Source of the DNA: Candidatus Kaiserbacteria bacterium
GTDB lineage: Bacteria > Patescibacteriota > Minisyncoccia > Phycocordibacterales > UBA918
DNA length: 64,000 nucleotides
NCBI GenBank assembly: GCA_016204695.1
Contig: JACQKD010000004.1
Span: forward strand, 251-64,250
Reading direction: 5' to 3'
Below the pieces are notes generated by a model, which made no database searches, was not told where the DNA came from, and was given only the letters and a program-made list of their open reading frames with translations. The position numbers were made by a program, and so were the translations under genes. Positions within the stretch are counted from its first letter, which is position 1; each line of letters starts with the position of its first letter. Positions 2,520 to 55,654 of the stretch are shown in pieces.

Positions 2520-4196
2520 ATGACGCAGACAGAAGCACTTGATGTGCTGAAAACCGGCGCGAACGTGTTCCTGACCGGCGAGCCGGGGGCGGGGAAGACG
2601 CATACGCTCAACGCATACATTACCTACCTGCGCGAGCACGGGATCGATGCGGCGGTCACGGCCTCGACCGGCATTGCGGCGACGCATATCGGCGGCATGA
2701 CCATTCATGCGTGGTCGGGCATCGGCATCAAGGATTCGCTTTCGCCATACGACCTTGAGCAGATTGCGACGCGTGAACGGGTCGCGAAGCGCGTTGCGCA
2801 GGCGAAAGTGCTTGTTATTGACGAGATTTCAATGCTCGATGCGCGGACATTCGGCATGGTTGACCAGGTCTTGCGGGCGGTGCGGAGAAGCCGCGAGCCG
2901 TTCGGGGGCATGCAGGTGGTGCTTGTCGGCGACTTCTTCCAACTGCCTCCCATCGGGAGAAGTACGGAAACGCAATTCGCTTTCATGTCGCCGCTCTGGC
3001 ATGAGCTTGGACTGATGAGTTGTTATCTCCATGAGCAGTATCGGCAGTCCGATGACTCGCTCACGGGTCTGCTCGGCTCTCTGCGCAATGGCACGGTGGA
3101 CGAGTCGGTCTATGACGTGCTCGAATCGTGCAAGGAGACGAGCTTTCAGGACGGTATCGAGCCGACGCGGCTCTATACACATAACGCAGACGTTGACCGT
3201 ATCAACGGCGAGCGTCTTGCGCGGCTTTCCGGCACGGCGCGGACATTTGCGATGGAATCGCGCGGCGCGCGGGCGCTTGTCGAGGGACTGAAGAAAAGCT
3301 GTCTCTCGCCGGAAACTTTGGAATTGAAAATCGGCGCGGTCGTGATATGTACGAAGAATAATTTTGATGTCGGATATGTCAACGGCACGCTCGGGCAGGT
3401 GGTGAAGTATGAAGAAAAAACGGGGTATCCGGTGATTGAGACGTTTGACGGCGAGGAGCTTGTCATTGCGCCGGCGAGCTGGTCGGTGACCGAGGGCGAC
3501 GCGGTGCTCGCTGAAGTGACGCAGGTGCCGTTGCGCCTTGCGTGGGCCATCACGGTGCATAAGAGCCAAGGTATGTCGCTCGATGCCGCCGAGATTGACC
3601 TCTCAAATGCCTTCGAGTACGGGCAGGGGTACGTCGCGCTCTCGCGCGTACGCTCGCTTTCGGGGCTTCTTTTGCGGGGATGCAATCAGCGCGCGCTTGA
3701 GGTCCATCCGCATGTTCGGAAGTACGATGGAAATTTCAAAGAACAATCCGAAGCGGCGTGTGCGGCGTTTGCCGAGATGTCCGAGAGCGAGCGGCAAAAA
3801 ATGCACGAGCAGTTCATCAAGGCGAGCGGAGGCACGCTTGAACGAAAAGAAATAGAGACGCGCCCCGCGCGCGGCGCCGATAAGACCTCGACATACGAGA
3901 AGACGCGGCTCCTTCTCGCAAGCGGCCAGACCATCGCCGACATCGCCCGCGCGCGAGGCATGAGTGCGGAGACGATCGTGGGCCACGTCTATCGTCTTGC
4001 CGAGGAGGGAAAGATAGCCGCGGGCGATATCAAGCATCTCACGTTCGAACAAGAACAGCTTGACGCAATCATGGCGATGGTCGAAAAGGTGGGAGGAACC
4101 GAGAAGCTTGCGCCCATCTACTACGGCCTAAAAGAGGCGTATTCATACAACGACATCCGCCTGCTTCTCGCAATCAATTTAATTCTCACTCGATAG
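2520..4196 (+). CDS. PIF1/RecD-family (SF1B) DNA helicase with a C-terminal helix-turn-helix-like extension.
   Basis: Walker A 'GEPGAGKTH', 'VLVIDEISML', 'VLVGDFFQLPPI', 'ICTKNNFDVGYVNGTLGQV' and 'AITVHKSQGMSLD' are the typical PIF1/RecD motif order. Confidence 0.75.
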   Translation: MTQTEALDVLKTGANVFLTGEPGAGKTHTLNAYITYLREHGIDAAVTASTGIAATHIGGMTIHAWSGIGIKDSLSPYDLEQIATRERVAKRVAQAKVLVIDEISMLDARTFGMVDQVLRAVRRSREPFGGMQVVLVGDFFQLPPIGRSTETQFAFMSPLWHELGLMSCYLHEQYRQSDDSLTGLLGSLRNGTVDESVYDVLESCKETSFQDGIEPTRLYTHNADVDRINGERLARLSGTARTFAMESRGARALVEGLKKSCLSPETLELKIGAVVICTKNNFDVGYVNGTLGQVVKYEEKTGYPVIETFDGEELVIAPASWSVTEGDAVLAEVTQVPLRLAWAITVHKSQGMSLDAAEIDLSNAFEYGQGYVALSRVRSLSGLLLRGCNQRALEVHPHVRKYDGNFKEQSEAACAAFAEMSESERQKMHEQFIKASGGTLERKEIETRPARGADKTSTYEKTRLLLASGQTIADIARARGMSAETIVGHVYRLAEEGKIAAGDIKHLTFEQEQLDAIMAMVEKVGGTEKLAPIYYGLKEAYSYNDIRLLLAINLILTR

Positions 4197-8186: not shown

Positions 8187-8792
8187 ATGAACCATCTCAA
8201 TTTTAATACCGCGTACTTTTTTCGGGCGGGACAGATCATCGCGGACACCATGTATCGGTATCGCCTTTCTGCGGGCATCGCTGTGTGGCTTCTCACGGCG
8301 GCCTTGATCCTCGCCGTCGTATTCGACGCAATACCGTGGGATAGGCTTCAATCACTTGGCTACGTCGGACTGTTTTTCGTAACGCTCATCAATGGCGCGA
8401 CGATCGTTTTTGGCGGACCAAGCCAAGTCGCCACTTTCTTCGCGGGGCAAAAGTTTTCACCATTTGCGGTCGGTATCGTAGCCGGTCTCGGGACTTCGAT
8501 CGGGGAACTCTCGGGCTATGTACTTGGGTACACAAGCACCGCTTTTCTTAATACACGTTTGGGCGAGAGAGTTACGTCGCTCCAAAAGACGCGTTGGCAT
8601 CGCTTGGTTATACAGTGGACGTTTCCCGCACTTATGCTTCTTGCCCTTGTGCCGAATCCTTTTTTCGATATCGTCAGTATTGCGGCAGGAATGACAAAAT
8701 TGCCCCTAAGGAAATACTACCCGCCGGTGATTCTCGGGAAGATGTTGCGATTTGTAGCACTTGCGTATGCGGGAGCGTGGCTTTTGTCCTGA
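8187..8792 (+). CDS. DedA/VTT-domain (SNARE-associated) membrane protein.
   Basis: Multi-TM protein with the pattern 'GLFFVTLINGATIVFGGPSQVATFFAG...GTSIGELSGYVLGY', typical of the DedA/YqaA family. The real start may be the internal Met at ~8250. Confidence 0.6.
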   Translation: MNHLNFNTAYFFRAGQIIADTMYRYRLSAGIAVWLLTAALILAVVFDAIPWDRLQSLGYVGLFFVTLINGATIVFGGPSQVATFFAGQKFSPFAVGIVAGLGTSIGELSGYVLGYTSTAFLNTRLGERVTSLQKTRWHRLVIQWTFPALMLLALVPNPFFDIVSIAAGMTKLPLRKYYPPVILGKMLRFVALAYAGAWLLS

Positions 8793-8831
8793 TTGAGTAC
8801 CGATAATGCAAAGGGGTGGATACTTGAAGAT

Positions 8832-9287
8832 CTAGACAAACAGTTTTTCGACGACTGCTTTTACATCAGCCCCGTCTGCTTTTCCGGCAAGCTCTTTCAT
8901 GACGGCTCCCATGAGCTGTCCCATGTTTGATTTATCCGTGACGCCAAGCTCGTCTTTTTTCGCGCGGGCAATCGGTTCGACGTCTTCCTGCGACATCATC
9001 CGGGGAAGATAGCTTTCCAGCACGACAAGCTCTTCCGACTCCACCGTCGCGAGGTCTTTGCGGTTGCCTTTGAGGAATTGCTCGATGGAATCCTTGCGCT
9101 GTTTTGCGAGCCGCCTGATGACGTTCACCACCTCGAGGTCGGCAAGCTCGTCTTGCGGCTTTCGACTCGTCGCGACAAGCTCATTGGTAAAGGCCGTCAG
9201 CATGTTGCGAATCGTCCGCAAGCGCACCTCGTCTTTGGCTTTCATCGCGTTCTTCAGCTGTTCTTTTATGTCGGTGTGTAATGGCAT
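8832..9287 (-). CDS. GatB/YqeY-domain protein.
   Basis: The 'MPLHTDIKEQLKNAMKAKDEVRLRTIRNMLTAF' ... 'LVVLESYLP' pattern is typical of YqeY. Confidence 0.8.
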   Translation of the reverse strand: MPLHTDIKEQLKNAMKAKDEVRLRTIRNMLTAFTNELVATSRKPQDELADLEVVNVIRRLAKQRKDSIEQFLKGNRKDLATVESEELVVLESYLPRMMSQEDVEPIARAKKDELGVTDKSNMGQLMGAVMKELAGKADGADVKAVVEKLFV

Positions 9288-9306
9288 AGAATAAGAGAGC
9301 GAATTT

Positions 9307-10065
9307 TTAAATAAGATTGACTTTCTCTTTTATCTTATCAGCGTACTCGTATAGTTCATTATAGGACAAACCAGATTGACCCCCGTTAGGAATAACACAA
9401 AAGGCAGTATCTTTGTTTGATGCGAATCGTGTTCGACGAGTAGTTTCTTCCGGCATTTCTCCAATAATATTCGTCCAATAAGGCAAATATCCCATTGAGT
9501 AAAAAATGATAAGCTTTGGTTTGTGTACTTGTATAAACTCCTTTATTTTCCGTGTCCTTTCTTGTAAATATTCCCTTTCATATTCTCGACGAGAAGAAAG
9601 TCCCACGAGGTCCGAGTTCCCGTAGAGCCAGTCCTCTTTTTTGGTGCTTGGGCAAGGAAGCGGTGATAATTCTAGTGTTGCTGTTTCTTTTTTCTCCGCG
9701 TCGGCAAGTATATTTCTTTGATATTCCTTTATCACCCTTCCTCTTTCGTCAGTTGTAAGTGATATGCCAGACTGAAGGTATAGATACAAAGCGATGGGAT
9801 ATTTCCATGTGGTCTGTAATTCACTCTCCGGAAGGAATGGCCCCATATTCGCAAGGTGATTCCACTCATTGATTTTTGAACGACTTGCATCCAGCATTCC
9901 GCCAAGCATGTTGGCCTCTGTATAACGGAATTGTTCCTCAAGCATCTCCAGACCTTCGGATGAATCAAATCGTTCATCCATACCGACAAACCACACAGGC
10001 GCTTCCATGCTACCGTATCCAAAAAAATTATTGATCCTGTTTTGTAAAATCTCTTGTGTAATCAT
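9307..10065 (-). CDS. Hypothetical protein with no recognisable domain, encoded in a low-GC segment.
   Basis: 252-aa ORF. The surrounding DNA (9300-10100) is markedly more AT-rich than its neighbours. Confidence 0.5.
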   Translation of the reverse strand: MITQEILQNRINNFFGYGSMEAPVWFVGMDERFDSSEGLEMLEEQFRYTEANMLGGMLDASRSKINEWNHLANMGPFLPESELQTTWKYPIALYLYLQSGISLTTDERGRVIKEYQRNILADAEKKETATLELSPLPCPSTKKEDWLYGNSDLVGLSSRREYEREYLQERTRKIKEFIQVHKPKLIIFYSMGYLPYWTNIIGEMPEETTRRTRFASNKDTAFCVIPNGGQSGLSYNELYEYADKIKEKVNLI

Positions 10066-10132
10066 TTTTATTTACGCAGTACGGATTGTATCACAAAACC
10101 GAGGGTCTTTCGGTTATGCTAAACTAGCAACT

Positions 10133-11233
10133 ATGGAATCTCTATTACCCATACTGATTATTCTTCTGCTCGTTGCTATTGTGGCAATCGGGTTTTTCTT
10201 GTGGAAATTGTCGCAGAGTTTGCGGGAGCGGGGGCAGGGGAGGGGGAACGAGATGCTTCTGCTCCAGCAACAACTGCAGGAGCTTTCGCGGACGCTTGAC
10301 GCGAAGATGGGGGAGACGACACGGACGATGCATCGGGCGGTGGAGACGCAGTTTAGTGAGTCTCAGCGGCTCATTCGCGACATCAACAAGGAAGTGAACG
10401 AGCAGATGATGAAGGTCGTCAAAGAAGTGAGCCAGGTGTCGGAATCGTCGAAGCAGGTGTTCACGGTTGCCGAACAGCTCCAAAATCTTGAGAAAGTGCT
10501 GAAACATCAGAAACAGCGCGGCAACCTCGGCGAAGCGTCGCTCCAGCTTGCGCTTGAAAATATGCTTCCGGCCGGCGCGTATCATCTCCAGTACCAATTT
10601 CCGGGGGGCGACACGGTGGACGCGGTGATTGAGACGAAGGACGGACTCATCTGCATTGATGCGAAGTTTTCGCTCGACAATTACCGTCGGCTTGTGGACG
10701 AGCCGGACGAGTTCCGCCGCAAAGAGCTCGAAAAAGATTTCACGAACGATCTCAAAAAGCGCATAGACGAGACGGCAAAATACATCCGCACGAAAGACGG
10801 CACGCTTCCGTTTGCCTTCATGTACATTCCCGCCGAGGCCATTTATTACGATCTCCTCGTCAACGAAGTGGGTGCGCTCAAGGTCAACACGCGCTCGCTG
10901 ATTGACTATGCGTACAAGGATAAGAACGTCATCATTGTTTCGCCGACGACGTTTGCCGCGTACTTGCAGTCGGTGCTCTATGGCTTTCGCGCATTCAAGA
11001 TTGAAGAATCCGCAAAGCAGATAGGCAAACAAGTGGAGGACTTATCGCGGCATCTCAAGGCGTATGACGACTATTTCAAGAAAGTGGGCACTGCGCTCGG
11101 CACGACCGTCAACCACTACAATGCCGCGCAAAAAGAGCTCGGCAAAGTGGACAAGGATGTCACGCGCATTACTGGTACCGGCGTGGGAGTGGAACAACTG
11201 GCGCTTGATAAGCCGCATGCGCTTGATGAGTAA
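10133..11233 (+). CDS. rmuC: DNA recombination protein RmuC.
   Basis: N-terminal TM helix, long coiled coil, then the conserved RmuC core 'DAVIETKDGLICIDAKFSL...FMYIPAEAIYYDL'. ATG preceded by a gap of ~60 nt. Confidence 0.8.
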   Translation: MESLLPILIILLLVAIVAIGFFLWKLSQSLRERGQGRGNEMLLLQQQLQELSRTLDAKMGETTRTMHRAVETQFSESQRLIRDINKEVNEQMMKVVKEVSQVSESSKQVFTVAEQLQNLEKVLKHQKQRGNLGEASLQLALENMLPAGAYHLQYQFPGGDTVDAVIETKDGLICIDAKFSLDNYRRLVDEPDEFRRKELEKDFTNDLKKRIDETAKYIRTKDGTLPFAFMYIPAEAIYYDLLVNEVGALKVNTRSLIDYAYKDKNVIIVSPTTFAAYLQSVLYGFRAFKIEESAKQIGKQVEDLSRHLKAYDDYFKKVGTALGTTVNHYNAAQKELGKVDKDVTRITGTGVGVEQLALDKPHALDE

Positions 11234-46826: not shown

Positions 46827-47312
46827 CTAGATAAAAAACAAACCGATGAGGGGGAGGAGCAGGAGCCAAAAGAAATATTGGGGAGGTGAAAAGAGCGCGC
46901 CGACGGCGGAGCCGGGGTCAAAGAGCGCAGTGACGGGGAGCACATGATAGCTGTACGCCATCACGAGTATGGTCGCCAGAACCGCGAGCAGGATTTTCTT
47001 CGGGACGCCTTCGTATATCTCGCGATAATCGCGCGGGAGCAGGCGTCCAAAGAGGAGCGTGGCAAGGACGGTGAATATCACAAAGACGATGATGGCCGCG
47101 ATGGGTGCGCCTGATTCTCCGCGCGAAAGGACGCCGTAAATGGCATCGTAGTATGGAAATTTCAGCGAGACGAGGAGTGCGATGTATAGGCCGAGCAAGA
47201 GCGTGATGAGTGCGCGATTGCCGCGAATGGCCGCATACGCGAGCAGTGCGCCAAACACGACAATCAGCGGGAGAAATTCTTTTGCGTATGCGAGCAATGC
47301 GTATACATCCAT
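46827..47312 (-). CDS. Hypothetical polytopic membrane protein.
   Basis: 161 aa, five hydrophobic helices, no domain recognised. Confidence 0.45.
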   Translation of the reverse strand: MDVYALLAYAKEFLPLIVVFGALLAYAAIRGNRALITLLLGLYIALLVSLKFPYYDAIYGVLSRGESGAPIAAIIVFVIFTVLATLLFGRLLPRDYREIYEGVPKKILLAVLATILVMAYSYHVLPVTALFDPGSAVGALFSPPQYFFWLLLLPLIGLFFI

Positions 47313-47361
47313 TGCTCTTGATTATACCGCTATCGCTCCGGTAAAAAGCGGCGGAGGTGGA

Positions 47362-48429
47362 TTAAATCCCTTCTTCGCGCAATTCCTCCACGAGCTTTTT
47401 CGCTTTTCGCGACAGTTTCTGCGGCGTGTCGATAATGACTTTCACGAGGAAGTCTCCTCTTCCGCCGCCGGTCTTCACTCCTTTTTCGCGGATGCGCAAC
47501 AGCTCTCCGCTCTGCATGCCCGCAGGTATTTTTACGCTTACCGGCCCGTCAAGCGTGGTCACGGTATATGTGGCGCCGAGAAGAGCATCGGTAAGTTTGA
47601 CAGACAGGGTACTGCGCAGGTTTGCTCCGTCGCGGACGATGGATGCGTGTTTGCCGACGTGTACTTTGATGTAGAGGTCGCCGGGTACGCCGCCGCGCAC
47701 GGCTTCACCCCGGCCGGTCATACGGATCATCTCGCCATCCTCAATGCCGGGAGGAACGGTGAGTCCGATTTCTTCCTCGCTCTTCAGCACGCCCCGGCCT
47801 CCGCACTTCGCGCAAGGGATCTTGGGGACGGTACCGCGACCGTCGCAGACGGTGCACTCGCGGACGGTGGTAAATGTGCCGAGAATGGACTGGCGCGTCT
47901 CACGTATCTTGCCATTGCCGTTGCAGGCGGTGCAGGCGACCGTACCGGCTTTCCTGTCGGCGCCGCTTCCCTCGCATTCCGGGCAGACGTTATTTTTTGT
48001 AAGCAGTATTCTGCGAGTGGCGCCGAAGACGGCTTCGGCAAGAGATATCTCAATATCTATCGAAATGTCGCGACCGCGCACTTCCTTGCGACCGCGTCTT
48101 CCGCCTCCGAACATGTCTCCGAATCCCTCGAAAATATCGTTGAGATCAAACTCGATCCCGCCGGCTCCCGCGCCGAATCCTCCCCAGTTCATGCCTGCGC
48201 CGCCCGCGCCGGGTCCGCCGTTGGCATACGAACGGCCGTACATATCATATTCGGCGCGCTTTTTCTGATCGGAGAGTACCGCGTACGCTTCGCTAATCTC
48301 CTTAAACTTCGCCTCATCGCCCCCCTTTTTATCGGGATGATACTTCGTGGCGAGCTTGCGAAACGCCTTCTTTATCTCATCTTGCGAAGCATTTTTCGTG
48401 ACCTCAAGAATCTGGTAGTAGTCCTTCAT
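47362..48429 (-). CDS. dnaJ: Chaperone DnaJ.
   Basis: J domain '[32 protein letters not shown]', G/F region, and four CxxCxGxG zinc repeats ([32 protein letters not shown]). Confidence 0.9.
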
Positions 48430-48516
48430 GGTGCATGTAGTATGCCAGAAAAAGAAATACGCCACAACCGGCGGGTTCGGTAGCCGTGCGTGTTGTATGG
48501 CCTTGCGGTCGGACTG

Positions 48517-49683
48517 TTATTCTATTGAAGGGTCGTCGACGATGGTAAATGACGTATCGCTCGAATCACAGAGTGGCTTGAACGTCACAGACGGGTTAGG
48601 TGTGCCCTCGTCACAGATAGTGATGCGATACTCTCCCAAAGGTACGTTCGCGGCTTCGGCCGGGAGTGTCTCAGTATTTTTGCCGATACCGCCGGAGAGC
48701 GGGGCCTCGTAGTATTCCGTGCCGGTTGTGTTGTTAAAAAGGTGGATGAAGAGGTCTTCGTCTTGGTAATTTTGCGACCAAGTCACGCGGATAGGGGTTC
48801 CCCTCTCGTATACTTCTCCGCCGTTCGGAGAGGTGACAGTGATGGAAGGACTCTCGGTGTTGCCGGTTAGCGTGAAGTAGGCGTCGCTCGTGTCGGTCGC
48901 AGTTGGTCCCTTGTCATCAGTGCTTACGATTATCTTGTACTTTCCATTAGGAATACTCGAATCGTATTTCCAAGAAAAACTTCCCATGTCTCGAACACCC
49001 GTACCGATCCATTTGACGATTTGGTCGTCGGCGTCGACAAGACCTACATTTATCGGCACATTATTGGTATACGCCGATGTCCACTTGATGTTTGCAATTA
49101 AGCCGCTGTCTTTTGCGCCCGAATTGTCCAATTGTTCTCCGCCGTTCGGATAGACGACCATGACAACGGCCCCTCCCTTCACGCTTGTTCCTATGGTTCC
49201 CACAAAGTACGGAGCACTCGCTCCTGCCGGATTTTGCACATACAGATAGTATGCGTCCTTGGCGAGCCAGTCGGGTACGACGACATCAATTCGGGCATCG
49301 TTCACGATGGTGTGTTTCAAATAGATGCTTTCAGTGGAATTTTCTCCTCTGATGCCGACCCCTGCGGTACGTTGCAGGTAGACGAGCGTTACCTCGTCGA
49401 AATGTTCTCCGAAAATGGAATTGCTGTCGCCCGTGCCGAAACCTCCTTTACCGTTGACGCTGGTGATGACCGGGAGCGGAATATCGGGGCCCGGGATTGG
49501 AGGGATTTCCGGATTTTCGCCAGCCACTATTCCACTATCTAACTGATGAGTCGCCACGGTGATTGCACGGTTGGCGACCTCTATCGCCTGTTCGCGGAGC
49601 GAAGCGTCAAGCGACGGGTGTGCCTGTACGAACAAAAGCAGTGATATGGCGGCTTGGAGCAAGAGGGCGGTGACGGATGTCAT
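48517..49683 (-). CDS. Secreted repeat-domain protein, member 1 of a tandem paralogue triplet.
   Basis: Shares the first ~40 aa 'MTSVTALLLQAAISLLLFVQAHPSLDASLREQAIEVAN.AI.VAT.Q' with the next two genes, and shares 'ITSVNGKGGFGTGDSNSIFG' and 'YYLYV.N..G.SAPYFVGTIG' with member 2. Ig/PKD-like beta-rich repeats. Confidence 0.6.
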   Translation of the reverse strand: MTSVTALLLQAAISLLLFVQAHPSLDASLREQAIEVANRAITVATHQLDSGIVAGENPEIPPIPGPDIPLPVITSVNGKGGFGTGDSNSIFGEHFDEVTLVYLQRTAGVGIRGENSTESIYLKHTIVNDARIDVVVPDWLAKDAYYLYVQNPAGASAPYFVGTIGTSVKGGAVVMVVYPNGGEQLDNSGAKDSGLIANIKWTSAYTNNVPINVGLVDADDQIVKWIGTGVRDMGSFSWKYDSSIPNGKYKIIVSTDDKGPTATDTSDAYFTLTGNTESPSITVTSPNGGEVYERGTPIRVTWSQNYQDEDLFIHLFNNTTGTEYYEAPLSGGIGKNTETLPAEAANVPLGEYRITICDEGTPNPSVTFKPLCDSSDTSFTIVDDPSIE

Positions 49684-49712
49684 GAATTAATTTATTTTAA
49701 TCCTTTTCAAGG

Positions 49713-51110
49713 TTAGTCGTTAGTCACCACGAAAAATGCGTCTGATTCATCTGTCACCGAACCTGTGCCGGTGTCGTATCCCACAACAGATATCTTCACA
49801 TTCTTTGATTCTGAAAAGGTTCCAATATCAACACTCCAATCATACGAATAGGTCCCGCTATTTTTCGAAGTGGGAATGTCAGTCGCTATCCAACTGACTG
49901 AACCGGTACCTAGCGACCATCCGAGGTACACCTTGTCTATCTGGGATGACTTCCATTTGATTGTGTAGGTTTCTCCTTGCGTCAGTGTCTCTCCCCCGTT
50001 AGGCGACAGAACGGCAATGGAACGCCCTGATTGTGTCTCGGTTGACACATCACTAATGGTGGCTGAACAACTCGTCGATATCGTGGTACCGGAGGCATCA
50101 GTAATGCGCACGGTCGCTTTTTTGGTTCCGATGGATGCATAATTCACCATGAGAGCTTGCGACTGAATACTACCTTCTCCGTAATTTGAGATGTCATCAA
50201 ACATGGTCCATGCATATCGGTATGGACTTTGTCCTCCTGACACGTATGCGGACCACGATGCTCCCGGTGTGCCAAAGTTGAAGGTGGCGGCTGAGCATGA
50301 AGCAGTCAATGACTGCAGAGTATCGTGTGCTCCGATAGTTCCCACAAAGTACGGAGCACTAGTCCCGGATTGGTTTTCCACATATAGATAGTAGGTGTCT
50401 TTAACCAAATACGGCACATCGACATTGAGTCTCGTGTCATCCACAATCGTATATCCTAAATGAATTCCTCCTTTGCCACTCCCATCTTTTCCATAGTCGA
50501 TCTCATGTCTGCCTTTCAGGTAAACATATGTTACTGTCGAGAAGTTTTTTCCGAAAATGGAATTGCTGTCGCCCGTGCCGAAACCTCCTTTACCGTTGAC
50601 GCTGGTGATGACGGGTGTTTTGGCTGTGTTTGCATCTCCTACGGAGATGGTGAGTGTGCCAACTGTCTGTAAATCTTTAGGGCCGCCATCTTTCCACCGT
50701 GAAAGTGTCGCGGTGTATGTTCCCGAATGAGTGTAGTCGTGACCGGCGACTCCGGTCGCGTTTGTGCAGTCATTGCAGGTGGTGTTCAAGGCCACTATGT
50801 CTGAACCATCACCAAAATCAAGCGCATAACCGAATGTATGGGGGTCATACAGGTTCTGTGCCTTAAAATTTACATGGAGGGGCGCATTGCCGGATTTCGG
50901 CGAAGCTGAAAATGCATTATTGTCTGCTGTGTCTTGGCTTTCTTGTGACGTTTTTTGTGGGGTTTCCGACTGATGAGTCGCCACGGTGATTGCATGGTTG
51001 GCGACTTCTATCGCCTGTTCGCGGAGCGAAGCATCAAGCGAGGGGTGTGCCTGCACGAACAAAAGCAGTGATATGGCGGCTTGGAGCAAGAGGGCGGTGA
51101 CGGATGTCAT
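49713..51110 (-). CDS. Secreted PKD-domain protein, member 2 of the triplet.
   Basis: Identical leader. PKD-like block 'YALDFGDGSDIV...HDYTHSGTYTATLS'. A ~60-nt DNA stretch is identical with member 1 (49400-49460 versus 50560-50620). Confidence 0.6.
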   Translation of the reverse strand: MTSVTALLLQAAISLLLFVQAHPSLDASLREQAIEVANHAITVATHQSETPQKTSQESQDTADNNAFSASPKSGNAPLHVNFKAQNLYDPHTFGYALDFGDGSDIVALNTTCNDCTNATGVAGHDYTHSGTYTATLSRWKDGGPKDLQTVGTLTISVGDANTAKTPVITSVNGKGGFGTGDSNSIFGKNFSTVTYVYLKGRHEIDYGKDGSGKGGIHLGYTIVDDTRLNVDVPYLVKDTYYLYVENQSGTSAPYFVGTIGAHDTLQSLTASCSAATFNFGTPGASWSAYVSGGQSPYRYAWTMFDDISNYGEGSIQSQALMVNYASIGTKKATVRITDASGTTISTSCSATISDVSTETQSGRSIAVLSPNGGETLTQGETYTIKWKSSQIDKVYLGWSLGTGSVSWIATDIPTSKNSGTYSYDWSVDIGTFSESKNVKISVVGYDTGTGSVTDESDAFFVVTND

Positions 51111-51157
51111 AGTAAAGATTTAAAATTAATTACCATATGCAGTAGCAAAAAGAATAG

Positions 51158-52144
51158 TTAAAAACCACTCTGGCTTGAAGTACTGCCGCCCCCGCCGCTA
51201 CCGGATGACGCGCCTCCGCCGCTTGACGAGCCGCCTCCACCTCCGGAAGAATCGCCGCTTCCACTTCCCGAACCACCCCCGCCTTCGTTACCACCTGAAC
51301 TTGAAGCGGTAATACTAAACGGCGTATTACTGAAATCTGACTTGATTTCCATGCCATCGCCACTTTTCCAAAATGCGTAGACGAAATACTTTCCGGGAAC
51401 GATGTCGGAGCCAAGTACGGCGTTTTTTTCTATGATACTTCCTGCCGTACTCGGCGAAATGTCGAGTGTCAGAAGATGGTACGCCGGGTCGCTTGGCTTA
51501 CCGCCCGCAAGTTCCTCCGAAAGCATCAGTTGCAGAGACCCGCGCGATTTGCTACTCCGCAGGTCAACTTTCAGCAGCAGAGTATCTCCCTGTGTGAAGG
51601 TTTCTCCCCCGTCTGGCGACACCACTTTTACGGAGGCGGCACTACCGGCTACGACTACCGTAAATGAGGCGATCCCGATTCCTCCTTTGCAGTCCGAGAC
51701 GGTCATTTCTACCGTATAGGTCCCGGGTGTATTCCAAGTGTGCGATTGAGTGAAGGCAGTATTTTCCGGGACACATATCGTACTGGATTTGCCGTTCCCC
51801 CAGTCTAGTGACCAGCCCACATTGTCGCCGTCCGGGTCTGTGCCCTTCCATGAAAAAGTAACTGCTTGTCCTGCGATAACATTGGTTGGTGTTTGAGGGA
51901 TGCTGGTGAACCGTGGAGGTTCATTTTCTGTCTCCGCTTTTTCTGTTGGGAGATTGGCAGTCGGAGCGACTTTAGGGAGTGGAGTGTCATGTTTCACTGT
52001 CGGTTGCTCCGTCGCCACTCTGATCGCTTGATTGGCGACTTCTATCGCTTGCTCGCGGAGCGAAGCGTCAAGCGACGGATGCGCCTGCACGAACAAAAGC
52101 AGTGATATGGCGGCTTGGAGCAAGAGGGCGGTGACGGATGTCAT
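51158..52144 (-). CDS. Secreted PKD-like protein with a Gly/Ser-rich tail, member 3 of the triplet.
   Basis: Identical leader. 'WSLDWGNGKSS...HTWNTPGTYTVEMTVSD' PKD-like block. C-terminal 'SSSGGNEGGGGSGSGSGDSSGGGGGSSSGGGASSGSGGGGS'. Confidence 0.6.
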   Translation of the reverse strand: MTSVTALLLQAAISLLLFVQAHPSLDASLREQAIEVANQAIRVATEQPTVKHDTPLPKVAPTANLPTEKAETENEPPRFTSIPQTPTNVIAGQAVTFSWKGTDPDGDNVGWSLDWGNGKSSTICVPENTAFTQSHTWNTPGTYTVEMTVSDCKGGIGIASFTVVVAGSAASVKVVSPDGGETFTQGDTLLLKVDLRSSKSRGSLQLMLSEELAGGKPSDPAYHLLTLDISPSTAGSIIEKNAVLGSDIVPGKYFVYAFWKSGDGMEIKSDFSNTPFSITASSSGGNEGGGGSGSGSGDSSGGGGGSSSGGGASSGSGGGGSTSSQSGF

Positions 52145-52315
52145 AAATGATGTGAAAAGTTATAGATAAGACCCATCTATAATGTGCGCGTAGGTATATC
52201 ACACAAACCGCCTATTTGTCAAGGCGGTTGTCCCCATGTGTGGGCGTTTTAGCTTTTCTGCTCTCCTCCCTCCTCTGTCTCAGTAACGATATTTGGCAGC
52301 AAGAGGGAAATGGGG

Positions 52316-52543
52316 TCAATTTTGTTTAACAAATCCTTGTCTCTTTAGGTGTGTGTAAGCAATGCCTTGAGCGCGTTGCAGCGCAGTCTTTTCAGTTGGA
52401 AATGTTTCTTCTGGTTGGGGAATTCGGATGTCTGTGATTTGACCAGCAATCATGATCCGAATCATACCCCACGCTGCCCAACTTCCATCCGGAATCTGAT
52501 GTGCGCTTGGTGATATTTTGATTGGTACCTTGAAGTAAATCAT
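52316..52543 (-). CDS. Possible small protein (75 aa) just downstream of dnaK. Weak.
   Basis: ATG 15 nt after the dnaK stop. No domain. Could be non-coding. Confidence 0.2.
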   Translation of the reverse strand: MIYFKVPIKISPSAHQIPDGSWAAWGMIRIMIAGQITDIRIPQPEETFPTEKTALQRAQGIAYTHLKRQGFVKQN

Positions 52544-52557
52544 AGTATTTGCTTTCC

Positions 52558-54444
52558 CTACTTTTCTCCACCATCATTCCCAATATCCGCGTCGTGGATG
52601 TTTTCACTGTTTGGGTTGGTTTGCGCGTCTCCGCTTGCCGGTGCGGCCTTTGCGACGGCTTCGCCGATTTTGGACATTTCGGTCGAGAGCGCGGCGGTTG
52701 CGGCAATGATGGCGTCGGCATCGTCCTTTTCTTTCGTGGATTTCAGGTCGGTGATTTTGGCTTCAACGCCGGTCTTCACGTCATTGCCGATTTTGTCTTT
52801 GTGGTCGGCGAGCGCTTTCTCGGCGGTGTAGATCATCTGGTCGGCTGTGTTGCGCGCCTCAATCACTTTCTTTTTCTTCTCGTCTTCGGCGCTGTGGGCT
52901 TCCGCGTCCTTCTTCATGCGCTCAATGTCGTCCGGTGTGAGTCCGGAGCTTGCTTCGATGCGGATGGATTGTGTCTTGCCGGAGGTCTTGTCCTTTGCAG
53001 TGACGTTCAGCACGCCGTTGGAGTCTACGTCAAATGCAACTTCCACCTGCGGAAGGCCGCGCGGCGCGGGCGGGATGCCGTCGAGGATGAAACGCCCGAG
53101 CGACTTGTTGTCGGCCGCCATCGGACGCTCGCCCTGCGTGATGTGGATTTCCACCGACGTCTGGTTGTCGGCGGCGGTTGAGAAGACCTGCTCTTTTTTC
53201 GTCGGAATATGCGTGTTTTTCTCGATGAGCTTCGTCGCCACGCCGCCGAGCGTTTCGATGCCGAGCGAGAGCGGAATGACATCCACGAGCGTGATGTCGT
53301 TGACATCTCCTTGGAAAATGCCGGCCTGGATCGCCGCACCGAGCGCGACGACTTCGTCGGGGTTGATGGTCTTGTTCGGCTCTTTTCCGAAGAGGTCTTT
53401 CACTGCCGAGACGATTGCAGGCATGCGCGTCTGTCCGCCGACCATGATGATTTCATCAATGTCGCCTTTCTGGAACGGCGATGCTTCAAGCGCGCGCTTC
53501 GTTATCTCGATTGAGCGGTCGATGTATTCGCGGGCGAGTTCTTCGAGCTTTGCGCGGCTCATTTTGAGCAACATGTGTTTCGGTCCGTTCTGGTCGGAGG
53601 TGATGAACGGAATGTTGATTTCCGTTTCGCCGACGGTCGAAAGTTCGTGCTTGGCTTTCTCGGCCGCTTCGGTGAGGCGCTGGAGCGCGAGCGGGTCTTT
53701 GCTGATGTCGATACCTTCGGACTTTTTGAATTCCGCGAGGAGCCAACGCACGATGCCCTGGTCGATGTCGTGGCCGCCCATGTGCGCGTCGCCGTCGGTC
53801 GCCTTCACCTCGATAACATCGTCGCCGACTTCAAGTACGGTGACATCGAAGGTGCCGCCGCCGAAGTCGAAGACAACGAGTTTCTCTTCTTTCTTTTTAT
53901 TAAAACCGTACGCGAGCGCGGCGGCGGTCGGTTCGTTGAGAATGCGCTTCACTTCAAGTCCCGCGATTTTTCCCGCGTCCTGCGTCGCTTTGCGCTGGGC
54001 ATCATTGAAATACGCCGGTACGGTGATGACCGCTTCGGTGATTTTTTCTCCAAGTTTCGCTTCCGCATCGGCTTTGAGTTTGCCGAGAATCATTGCGGAA
54101 ATTTCCTCCGGGCGCAGGTCTTTCTCGCCCATTTTGACGAGCACGCCGCCGTCCGGGCCGTCCTTCACTTCATACGGCACCATTTCCTTGTCTTTCTGCA
54201 CATGCTCTTCCTTGAAACTGTGCCCCATGAAGCGCTTGATGCCGTAGATGGTGTTCTGCGGATTGGTCACCGACTGGCGCTTCGCAATCTGGCCGACGAG
54301 CCGCTCGCCGGTCTTCGAAATTGCGACAACCGATGGTGTCGTGCGTGCGCCATCGCTGTTTTCGATGATGCGCGGTTCGCCACCTTCGACGATCGCCATC
54401 GCGGAGTTGGTCGTACCCAAATCGATTCCAAGAATTTTTGCCAT
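52558..54444 (-). CDS. dnaK: Molecular chaperone DnaK (Hsp70).
   Basis: '[22 protein letters not shown]', '[14 protein letters not shown]', '[14 protein letters not shown]' and the EEVD-like acidic C-terminus. Confidence 0.95.
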
Positions 54445-54458
54445 ATGTCGTGTTGTTG

Positions 54459-55142
54459 TTATTTTTGATAAGTTCCGACTACTACTTTTGCCGGACGGAC
54501 GAGCCGTTCGCCCATGCGGTATCCTTTCTGAAGCACTTCGAGCACGGTATGGTCTCGGGCGGCGTCCTCGACGGGGATTTCAGAAACCGCCTCATGGAAG
54601 TGCGGGTCAAACGGTGCGCCAGCCGGCTCCAATGCTTCTACATCGTACGATTTCAAAACAGCCGCGAGCTGATTATATATCTGCTCCACGCCCGCGCGCC
54701 AGTTCTCCTCCTTACAGGAGCTGTTCAGGTTGTATGACGGTTTCTCCCTTTGGTCGAAACCGTCGACAACCTCTTGCGAAGCTCCAAGTATTCGCTTCTC
54801 ACTTCCCTGCTTTTTAATGTCCTCCATCGCTCGGTCGAAGCTGTCGGCAAGCGGAAGAATTTTCTCGATGAAGCGCGCGGTCTGTCGTTCCGCTTCCCGT
54901 TCGCGTTCCTCGACGGCCCGACGCTGGCTATTCAGATAATCCGCCTTTGCCCTCTGCCAGCCGTCGAGATATTCCTGCCGTTCCTGTTGACACGCCGCGA
55001 GCTTCTCCTTCATCTTCTTTAATTCTCCTTTGAAATCGCCCTCGATGTCTTCCAATTCTGGCTCATCTCCGCCTGCTGGCGGACTGTCAGCGTCATCAAA
55101 AACCATATCGTCGCCTTCGCCTGTTGCCTTCTTCTTAATCAT
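54459..55142 (-). CDS. grpE: Nucleotide exchange factor GrpE.
   Basis: Long helix then C-terminal '[45 protein letters not shown]'. Confidence 0.9.
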
Positions 55143-55179
55143 AACGTGCGTATTATAAATTGGTTTTTACCTTGTGTCA

Positions 55180-55213
55180 AAAAAAACGGGCAGGCACGCC
55201 TGCCCGTTTTTTT
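55180..55213 (-). terminator. Intrinsic terminator after rpsI, before grpE.
   Basis: AAAAAAAA-CGGGCAGG-cacg-CCTGCCCG-TTTTTTT: an 8-bp GC stem with flanking A and T tracts (bidirectional shape). Confidence 0.6.
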
Positions 55214-55228
55214 GAGGGGAGAGAAACT

Positions 55229-55654
55229 CTATCTCTTACTCCACTGAGGTGCTTTGCGGGCTTTCTTGAGGCCGAATTTGCGGCGTTCCTTGCTTCTAGG
55301 GTCGCGCATGAGGAGGCCGGCTTGTTTGAGCTCGGTGCGGCGCTCCGGCTTCTCCTTCACGAGCGCTCGCGCGATGCCGAGCTTGATGGCGTCTCCTTGG
55401 GCGCGGATGCCGCCGCCCGAAACGTGTGCGGAAACTTCGTAATTACCGAGTGTCTCGTCGGCGGAAAATGCCAAGAGTACGGCGTGCTCAAGCGCCGGTG
55501 AACGGAAATATTCGGCAAGCGACTTGCCGTTTACCGTGATTGCGCGTTCCTTTGCGGGAGTGAGACGCACGCGGGCGGTCGCGGTCTTGCGGCGGCCGAT
55601 TCCCTCTTTGTACTTCTCTGTGTTTGTAACTTTTTTCGTTTCCGGCATAGGCAT
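55229..55654 (-). CDS. rpsI: 30S ribosomal protein S9.
   Basis: 'GRRKTATARVRL' ... 'VSGGGIRAQGDAIKLGIARAL' ... C-terminal 'KFGLKKARKAPQWSKR'. Confidence 0.9.
   Translation of the reverse strand: MPMPETKKVTNTEKYKEGIGRRKTATARVRLTPAKERAITVNGKSLAEYFRSPALEHAVLLAFSADETLGNYEVSAHVSGGGIRAQGDAIKLGIARALVKEKPERRTELKQAGLLMRDPRSKERRKFGLKKARKAPQWSKR

Follow-up and report, generated by a model that had tools for sequence, protein, structure and literature searches.

A tandem triplet of putatively exported Ig-like proteins with shared 5' ends between dnaK and dnaJ of a Candidatus Kaiserbacteria bacterium

Genes and domains at the locus

We analyzed a 64,000-nucleotide (nt) stretch of DNA from a Candidatus Kaiserbacteria bacterium (contig JACQKD010000004.1 of GenBank assembly GCA_016204695.1; hereafter the window), in which three tandem genes with a common 5' end, termed here g1, g2 and g3, lie between dnaK and dnaJ. 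An earlier note on this DNA, made from the sequence alone, had described three consecutive minus-strand genes of 388, 465 and 328 amino acids (aa) at this position, and the open reading frames (ORFs) agree with that description. All three genes are intact, with start codons, full ORFs and direct orientation. The genes and their flanks are as follows.

47362-48429, minus strand: dnaJ, the downstream flank; an ORF with its start set at the ATG at 48429 and with tblastn matches in the reference loci
48517-49683, minus strand: g1, 388 aa; an ORF with leader, Pro-rich linker, TIG-like module and two Kre9/KNH-like beta-sandwich modules
49713-51110, minus strand: g2, 465 aa; an ORF with leader, linker, PKD, TIG-like module, Cys-containing beta module and Kre9-like module
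51158-52144, minus strand: g3, 328 aa; an ORF with leader, linker, PKD, immunoglobulin (Ig)-like module and Gly/Ser tail
51161-51304, minus strand: Gly/Ser-rich C-terminal tail of g3 in translation, ~48 residues (about aa 281-328), kept in the orthologue L005b
52558-54444, minus strand: dnaK, the upstream flank; an ORF with tblastn synteny to grpE-dnaK-dnaJ in 80 reference loci

The three proteins have a common architecture, in which a 47-aa leader (MTSVTALLLQAAISLLLFVQAHPSLDASLREQAIEVAN.AI.VAT) is followed by a low-complexity linker rich in P, T, S, Q and E and then by two to four beta-sandwich modules (PKD, TIG-like and Kre9/KNH-like). The triplet had been called PKD-like as a whole, which holds for g2 (PF18911, PKD_4, 30.7 bits at aa 71-146; gathering cut-off 27) and g3 (PF00801, 38.4 bits at aa 86-155, cut-off 23.5; PF18911, 35.4 bits) but not for g1, in which no PKD match was found in Pfam at E <= 1 and Kre9_KNH was detected instead (PF10342, 34.4 bits at aa 285-366 in two stretches; cut-off 24.6). 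The Kre9_KNH match of g2 was weak (14.8 bits, below the cut-off) and g3 had none. The Gly/Ser tail reported for g3 is real.

The ~95-aa module of g1 and g2 ('PVITSVNGKGGFGTGDSN...YYLYV.N..G.S.PY.VG.IG') has no direct match in Pfam, and IPT/TIG (PF01833) was not found in either protein at E <= 1. We regard the module as TIG-like; the profile of this SVNGKGG module was aligned by hhalign with a small set of TIG-type modules, including the Pfam-confirmed TIG of P0051, with a probability of 94% and an E value of 9.6e-8. The AlphaFold2 model of g1 (mean predicted local distance difference test score 72) comprises helices at 4-21 and 27-49, disorder at 46-66 and three beta-sandwiches. With this model, Foldseek retrieved proteins with tandem Ig or fibronectin type III (FnIII) domains, such as contactins, titin and bacterial giant adhesins.

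In the NCBI records, the counterparts of the triplet come from a single 81-kb Candidatus Kaiserbacteria contig. The PKD domain-containing protein P0001 is g2 (100% identity), while P0002 (388 aa, tag HY416_01535) and P0011 (328 aa, PKD-domain) correspond to g1 and g3, respectively.

DNA shared among the three genes

The 5'-most 56 nt of g1, g2 and g3 are exactly identical, and the g2/g3 pair is identical over 62 nt; a match of the 56-nt type occurred in none of 100 shuffles of the window. The identity of the 5' ends reported earlier thus stands, albeit over a shorter tract than the ~66 nt proposed, and the 40 shared residues of that report are 38 identical residues within 47 alignable ones. 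Over 142 nt, the other two leader copies are 96% and 88% identical to that of g1. The identity begins precisely at the ATG, and the DNA upstream of the three genes is unrelated. Behind the 56 identical nt, the next 85 nt differ at 6 sites between g1 and g2 and at 15 sites between g1 and g3.

Beyond the leader, g1 and g2 have in common an exact block of 63 nt (49408-49470 and 50550-50612) and a second one of 23 nt (49196-49218 and 50338-50360), both of which sit within one homologous ~95-aa module. The first is the ~60-nt block that had been noticed before, although the coordinates given for its second copy were about 10-18 nt off. The genes are mosaics of shared modules.

49543-49683, minus strand: leader coding region of g1 (aa 1-47), with the shared exact 56 nt at 49628-49683
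50970-51110, minus strand: leader coding region of g2 (aa 1-47), with the exact 56-nt copy at 51055-51110
52004-52144, minus strand: leader coding region of g3 (aa 1-47), with the exact 56-nt copy at 52089-52144
49189-49473, minus strand: TIG-like 'SVNGKGGFGTGD' module of g1 (aa 71-165), containing the 63-nt block
50331-50615, minus strand: TIG-like module of g2 (aa 166-260), containing the 63-nt block

Related loci and the site of the insertion

Other metagenomes contain homologues that bear this leader (P0003, P0004, P0006, P0008 and P0010). In all of the five related contigs that include the 3' end of dnaK, a leader gene directly follows dnaK.

L001: dnaK, one leader gene (296 aa), dnaJ
L004: dnaK, at least one leader gene
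L005: dnaK, a 376-aa gene, a 335-aa gene, dnaJ
L006: dnaK, at least one leader gene
L007: dnaK, one leader gene (268 aa), then the motif found upstream of dnaJ (see below)

The DnaK sequences of these contigs are 81-91% identical to that of the window, with 0.54-0.65 differences per synonymous site (pS; pN for non-synonymous sites), so that the contigs belong to different species. The same kind of locus in independent metagenomes makes an assembly artefact unlikely.

The content of the locus varies among the relatives. There are one to three leader genes across the window and the related contigs, and the g3-type gene is the first in the window but the last in L005. The module sets differ from contig to contig (leader-TIG-Kre9, leader-TIG-Kre9-Kre9, leader-X-Kre9 and leader-PKD-Ig-GS tail). 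Stable orthologues without variation, which the earlier note had named as evidence against its own reading, were thus not what the related genomes carry, as they differ in copy number, gene order and modules.

Among the closest references in which dnaJ was located, L013 and L015 (DnaK 85-86% identical), the gap between dnaK and dnaJ is 95 nt, and it is 60-89 nt in the next closest ones, L014, L016 and L018 (DnaK 80% identical), whereas gaps of up to ~3.7 kb occur in more distant Paceibacterota. No leader gene was found within 8 kb of dnaK in 80 GTDB species representatives retrieved with the DnaK C-terminus. A scan of GTDB with the family alignment yielded no relative, and the clade is not represented among the species representatives. 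As a leader gene follows dnaK in all five of these contigs while dnaK and dnaJ are adjacent in the close references, the insertion is a derived trait of a narrow clade, with a stable position and a variable content. The position had been flagged as unusual; it is so when set against the gaps of 60-95 nt in the close references, but it is not a one-off.

In the closest GTDB match, L012 (DnaK 85% identical), the 1.2 kb past dnaK (8672-9928) contain no dnaJ and no ORF longer than ~96 aa. Two leader genes lie away from dnaK, that of L003 and that of L002, the latter after a nusA-like gene. In L002 (51-656 and 479-922), the leader gene follows a fragment of this nusA-like KH-domain gene, and an ORF like an insertion sequence-type transposase lies upstream; this contig could be rearranged or chimeric.

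Synonymous divergence and gene conversion

The following synonymous comparisons are Nei-Gojobori p-distances, with the leader taken as 47 codons.

Leader pS, g1 and g2: 0.11
Leader pS, g1 or g2 and g3: 0.29-0.30
Leader pS, first 19 codons, all three genes: 0
Leader pS, window leaders and leaders of other species: 0.53-0.79
Leader pS, the two leader genes of L005: 0.72

Two of the window genes have orthologues in other species, namely g3 in L005b (L005:2256-3263; 53% aa identity, full length, the same architecture and tail) and g1 in L004/P0008 (52% aa identity). Thus, the g1- and g3-type genes predate the split of the species. Nevertheless, the leader pS of the orthologous pairs is 0.62-0.74 against 0.11-0.30 within the genome, and the leader of g3 is nearer to that of g1 (0.30) than to that of its own orthologue (0.62). 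The residues H22 and S24 are common to the three window leaders and are not found in other species.

The TIG-like modules of g1 and g2 are mosaic in the same sense. Their pS is 0.06 over codons 1-22, 0.82 (saturated) over codons 23-75 and 0.52 over codons 76-96. In other species, different synonymous codons are used in the first 22 codons of the module, and we therefore regard the 63-nt identity as a conversion tract and not as a constrained nucleotide element. As the 5' ends are homogenised despite the older paralogue types and the 63-nt tract has been copied between g1 and g2, the leaders show concerted evolution, which indicates short-tract gene conversion between the tandem copies. The mosaic synonymous pattern and the comparison of orthologues bear out the recombination or gene conversion among paralogues proposed in the earlier note.

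Conversion might be dispensed with if two recent tandem duplications of one ancestor had given rise to the triplet, the leaders being simply young and the bodies having been replaced or having diverged very fast. The copies are indeed adjacent and in the same orientation, and an insertion of ~10 residues in the TIG-like modules of g1 and g2, not present in other species, makes these two modules sisters within the genome. This scenario is nonetheless improbable, as the orthologues of g1 (L004) and g3 (L005b) are full-length and show saturated synonymous divergence from their window counterparts, and as a tract with a pS of 0.06 abuts one with a pS of 0.82 in the TIG-like module, a pattern that uniform ageing cannot give.

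We also weighed whether the first ~56 nt are held constant as a DNA or RNA element, for instance for translation initiation without a Shine-Dalgarno sequence, as a target of small RNA or as a recombination site. Across species, the same 56 nt vary synonymously (e.g., 10 of 56 nt in the comparison with L007), the leader pS reaches the between-species and L005 values listed above, and no Rfam family matches the region. It is thus quite unlikely that such an element accounts for the identity, even though several observations fit it: the identity starts at the ATG and is perfect over 56 nt before the 6 and 15 differences set in, and if the 15 g1/g3 differences were spread uniformly over 141 nt, the chance of none falling within the first 56 nt would be ~5e-4. 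Furthermore, g2 and g3 have no obvious upstream Shine-Dalgarno sequence, and several species share the codons used for L-L-Q-A ('TTGCTCCA').

Divergent bodies behind a conserved 5' end are also seen in programmed antigenic or phase variation, in which an expression site is combined with cassettes and the switching is due to a site-specific recombinase or to a homopolymer tract; examples are Mycoplasma vsp/vsa and Neisseria pilE/pilS. A run of 10 C between the dnaK stop and the leader gene of L004 (745-760), to which nothing in the window is comparable, could be a slippage-prone tract and would suit such a system. We consider programmed variation very unlikely at the locus, where three complete ORFs stand in direct orientation with no silent cassette, no inverted repeats were found within 48000-52600 and no tandem or homopolymer repeats at the triplet, and the neighbours within several kb all read as housekeeping genes in the ORF list, with no recombinase among them.

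In the bodies, a pN of 0.30-0.33 against a pS of 0.68-0.84 shows purifying selection, as expected of real genes. For dnaK, the pN over these species pairs is 0.06-0.11, and the bodies evolve 3-5 times faster at non-synonymous sites.

The leader and its family

The N-terminal leader was compared with the established types of sorting signal. It begins MTSVTALLL without K or R and thus has no positively charged n-region. No Cys occurs in aa 1-60 of g1, g2 or g3, so that a lipobox for signal peptidase (SPase) II is absent; a type IV pilin or class III signal is also absent (N-terminus M-T-S, no charged residue, no Gly at -1 and no Glu at +5). A sortase motif had been suggested for a check, and no LPXTG anchor was found in the three proteins, which end in ...FTIVDDPSIE (g1), ...FFVVTND (g2) and ...GGSTSSQSGF (g3). 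The putative junction, V-Q-A before H-P, is compatible with small residues at -3 and -1. It is followed by a conserved amphipathic helix, and the ~25 residues past the junction are strongly conserved.

No match covering the leader region was found in Pfam, NCBIfam, PHROGs or PDB sequences, and neither the leader nor the proteins had a match in PHROGs, in the PDB sequence search or by tblastn against GenBank phages. A literature search retrieved no description of the leader or of the dnaK-dnaJ locus. As a word-indexed search with the leader alignment returned two matches and missed known members, we used an exhaustive search with a 50-position profile against 1.84 billion representatives. The leader is not private to the triplet and belongs to a family of 408 proteins (clusters) at E <= 1e-3, 20 of them at E <= 1e-10. 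Among the best 150 of the 408 matches, the leader is nearly always at the extreme N-terminus, in proteins of 60-650 aa. The bodies behind family leaders include PKD, TIG, Kre9/KNH, PsbP-like, PG_binding_1 and DUF4214, and many have no match at all.

The family consensus reads M-x(2-6), a hydrophobic helix (LLxAALSLLxFV), Q-x-[N/H]-P-x-L-P-x-x-x-R-D-Q-A-x-x-V-A-x-Q-A-I-x-x-A-T and a linker rich in S, T, Q and P. The median Kyte-Doolittle value of the helix is 2.1 over 17 residues. Neither K nor R precedes it in 139 of the 140 members whose helix begins within 10 residues of the N-terminus. At the V-Q-x-[N/H]-P junction, V at -4 and P at 0 are nearly invariant, while the putative -1 residue for SPase I varies among 149 members (46 with Q, 35 with A, 25 with S and 16 with G). 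Altogether, the leader is a single conserved, domain-like unit of 47 aa and a member of a large un-annotated family of Paceibacterota.

One named member comes from a metagenome-assembled genome of Candidatus Paceibacterota. Two members, L008 and L093, are in ordinary chromosomal contexts of the Candidate Phyla Radiation (CPR), and most of the other members examined are not near dnaK. One leader gene (L092, 4704-5363) lies on a phage-like contig from IMG/VR that also encodes methyltransferases and GroES/GroEL-like proteins, another (L011, ~9848-10249) on a phage-like contig with an SU10 adaptor and HNH, and a third (L010, ~9561-10970) beside an integrase/TrwB-like element. The leader is thus in use on mobile elements of these bacteria, too.

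Modules homologous to those of the triplet sit behind ordinary K-rich signal peptides in P0005, P0007, P0009, P0012 and P0013. In two of these, the Parcubacterial homologues P0009 and P0012, an amphipathic helix rich in Ala, Gln and Leu follows right after the canonical signal peptide (e.g., LQAEIASLLKVVASLEAQIAAL), and such a post-signal helix may be a general feature of the surface proteins of this group.

The uncharged N-terminus, together with the place of the genes within a chaperone cluster, raises the question of whether the leader is an export signal at all; the proteins might instead be cytoplasmic or membrane-associated clients or partners of DnaK and DnaJ. To this view we give very little credence. 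PKD, TIG and Kre9/KNH are extracytoplasmic folds, the same modules follow the canonical signal peptides just described, and a disordered stalk of low complexity comes after the leader, as it does in surface proteins; moreover, the family members away from dnaK, the majority of those examined, are at odds with a partnership encoded by proximity.

Spacers, promoter-like sites and flanking genes

The statements on transcription below are pattern matches.

48439-48467, minus strand: conserved promoter-like motif ahead of dnaJ (TTGTGG, 17 nt, TG-G-CATACT), overlapping the hairpin and T-run after g1
48473-48460: terminator-like site between g1 and dnaJ
52193-52222, minus strand: weak promoter-like element upstream of g3 (TTGACA, 18 nt, TG-A-TATACC), seen in the sequence and not reported by the consensus scan
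55152-55180, minus strand: grpE promoter with a perfect sigma-70 consensus (TTGACA, 17 nt, TATAAT; 12/12 matches), which starts the grpE-dnaK unit

The core of the motif upstream of dnaJ, TTTTTCTGGCATACT, was also found in L001 (~2640-2672), L007 (~1505-1540) and L005 (~2200-2235 and ~3305-3340), and in all relatives the motif (TTGTkG, 17 nt, TG-G-CATACT) stands 9-12 nt before the ATG of dnaJ. This would point to transcription of dnaJ from a separate promoter, with an mRNA that is nearly leaderless. The second copy of TTTTTCTGGCATACT in L005 is in the spacer between its two leader genes, ahead of the second one, and would be consistent with duplication of a gene-plus-junction unit. Candidate copies of the motif before g3 and in the g3-g2 spacer were unconvincing on alignment.

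The spacer between dnaK and g3 (52145-52557) is 413 nt long, as against ~54-135 nt between dnaK and the first leader gene in the relatives, in which the short gap suggests possible read-through from dnaK. The spacer folds more stably than its shuffles (z = -3.3), with a strong hairpin (CCCUCUUGCUG...CAGAGGAGGG), and holds an ORF of 75 aa (~52316-52543, minus strand). That it is a decayed leader gene was ruled out, as searches with blastx, blastn and tblastx yielded no match to any family protein or locus. No credible Rfam match was found in 47000-55600, the spacer included.

Further upstream of dnaK, grpE, rpsI, rplM, rplQ and rpoA are on the same strand, and a membrane-protein gene, trpS and an aspS-like gene lie downstream of dnaJ. 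The grpE promoter is preceded by a terminator-like hairpin after rpsI (window 55152-55206, minus strand). No CIRCE (controlling inverted repeat of chaperone expression) element (TTAGCACTC-N9-GAGTGCTAA) was found anywhere in the window. The GC content is 48-53% in the triplet locus and 53-60% in the flanks, and the base composition of the locus gave no clear signal of foreign origin.

A diversifying locus for putatively exported proteins

We regard it as probable that the triplet represents a lineage-specific, fast-evolving locus for exported proteins with Ig-like domains, which a narrow clade of Candidatus Kaiserbacteria carries between dnaK and dnaJ and of which the leaders are homogenised by gene conversion. 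The leader would act as an export signal or membrane anchor, given that it occupies the place of a signal peptide, that homologous modules bear K-rich signal peptides, that the folds behind it are extracytoplasmic and that a disordered stalk follows; it would be either cleaved at VQA|HP or kept as an anchor. The leaders may also have an envelope partner in common, as the amphipathic helix past the junction is conserved. The Ig-like modules would then be displayed on the surface of a wall-bound cell without an outer membrane and might bind a host or a substrate, and a role in adhesion or host contact is plausible in a CPR bacterium. The leader DNA shared in direct orientation would supply the homology for unequal exchange and module shuffling, and such exchange would account for both the reshuffling of the bodies and the range of one to three copies.

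Several points weigh against this interpretation. We infer export, surface location and the adhesive role from sequence, while the positive n-region charge expected of a bacterial Sec signal is missing from the leader, and in many members of the family the putative -1 residue is Q, which makes a poor site for SPase I. The two leaders of L005 are not homogenised (pS 0.72), from which we take conversion to be episodic and not constant at the locus. Constraint at the nucleotide level could contribute to the perfect identity of the 56 nt, which stand next to 85 nt with 15 differences between g1 and g3. Finally, the relatives compared are short metagenome contigs of different species and not members of one population.

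A bolder extension of the same interpretation, which we put forward tentatively and hold to be possible but doubtful, is that the leader is an undescribed sorting or anchoring signal used throughout Paceibacterota. Its features would be the uncharged N-terminus, the hydrophobic helix, the V-Q-x-[N/H]-P-x-L-P junction and the conserved amphipathic helix, and it would be served by dedicated machinery or an envelope partner, not by plain Sec, and be used by phage-like and integrative elements as well. The dnaK-linked array would in that case be a rapidly diversifying host-contact locus, the expression or export competence of which is coupled to the DnaK unit.

Comparison with known systems

A close parallel is the streptococcal emm-like family, the mrp-emm-enn tandem genes of the mga regulon, which likewise comprises two or three tandem surface-protein paralogues on the same strand with conserved signal-sequence DNA at the 5' end, mosaic divergent bodies and recombination between neighbours. 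M-like proteins, however, are coiled-coil fibrils with a canonical YSIRK-type signal peptide, an LPXTG anchor and conserved 3' ends as well, whereas the triplet has Ig-like bodies, no LPXTG, conservation at the 5' end only and a non-canonical leader. Mycoplasma vsp/vlp/vsa are also clustered paralogues with a near-identical signal-peptide 5' end, variable bodies and a fast-changing repertoire, but they share the upstream non-coding region and promoter as well and have a lipobox Cys, internal tandem repeats and switching by inversion or homopolymer, none of which is seen in the triplet. In Helicobacter babA/babB and Neisseria opa, short-tract non-reciprocal exchange between paralogues has similarly produced mosaic genes with conserved ends; there, in contrast, the paralogues are dispersed around the chromosome and encode beta-barrels or adhesins in diderm pathogens, and their exchange has been recorded within populations.

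The leader resembles a canonical Sec/SPase I signal in its N-terminal place, its ~17-residue hydrophobic core, the V-x-A before the junction in the window proteins and the extracytoplasmic passengers. It differs in having no charged n-region, a conserved helix past the junction, Q at -1 in many family members and conservation over the whole 47 aa.

Pam pili consist of CPR-specific extracellular Ig-like/FnIII-like proteins thought to mediate host contact; their components carry signal peptides predicted by SignalP, the operon includes chaperones (PamC/D), and the pilins are found mainly in Saccharimonadia and Microgenomatia (bioRxiv 10.64898/2026.03.03.709456). The PKD region of g3 weakly matches the PamR model, and no chaperone-like gene of the kind in the pam operon is present at the triplet locus. 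We rejected membership of the triplet in this system, since the match to PamR (NCBIfam NF058578) scores 32.4 bits against a cut-off of 300 and covers g3 aa 112-176 only (~65 residues).

Significance

Tandem paralogues for surface proteins in which conserved signal-sequence DNA precedes mosaic bodies, and among which gene conversion occurs, are already well known, and the general picture of how bacterial surface-protein families evolve is unchanged by the locus. What is new is the host lineage, a genome-reduced member of CPR, the dnaK-dnaJ site kept within the clade, and an un-annotated leader family that lacks the charged n-region. For a bacterium with a reduced genome, the locus offers a clean natural case of gene conversion over short tracts together with module shuffling.

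CPR bacteria (Patescibacteria) are thought to live attached to other cells, and to our knowledge the surface molecules for this attachment are almost unknown outside Saccharibacteria. The site adjacent to dnaK makes a fast-evolving and probably surface-exported set of Ig-like proteins easy to find and to compare across the clade. Defining the leader family would improve the prediction of secretomes in Paceibacterota, and could point to an unrecognised route of export or anchoring.

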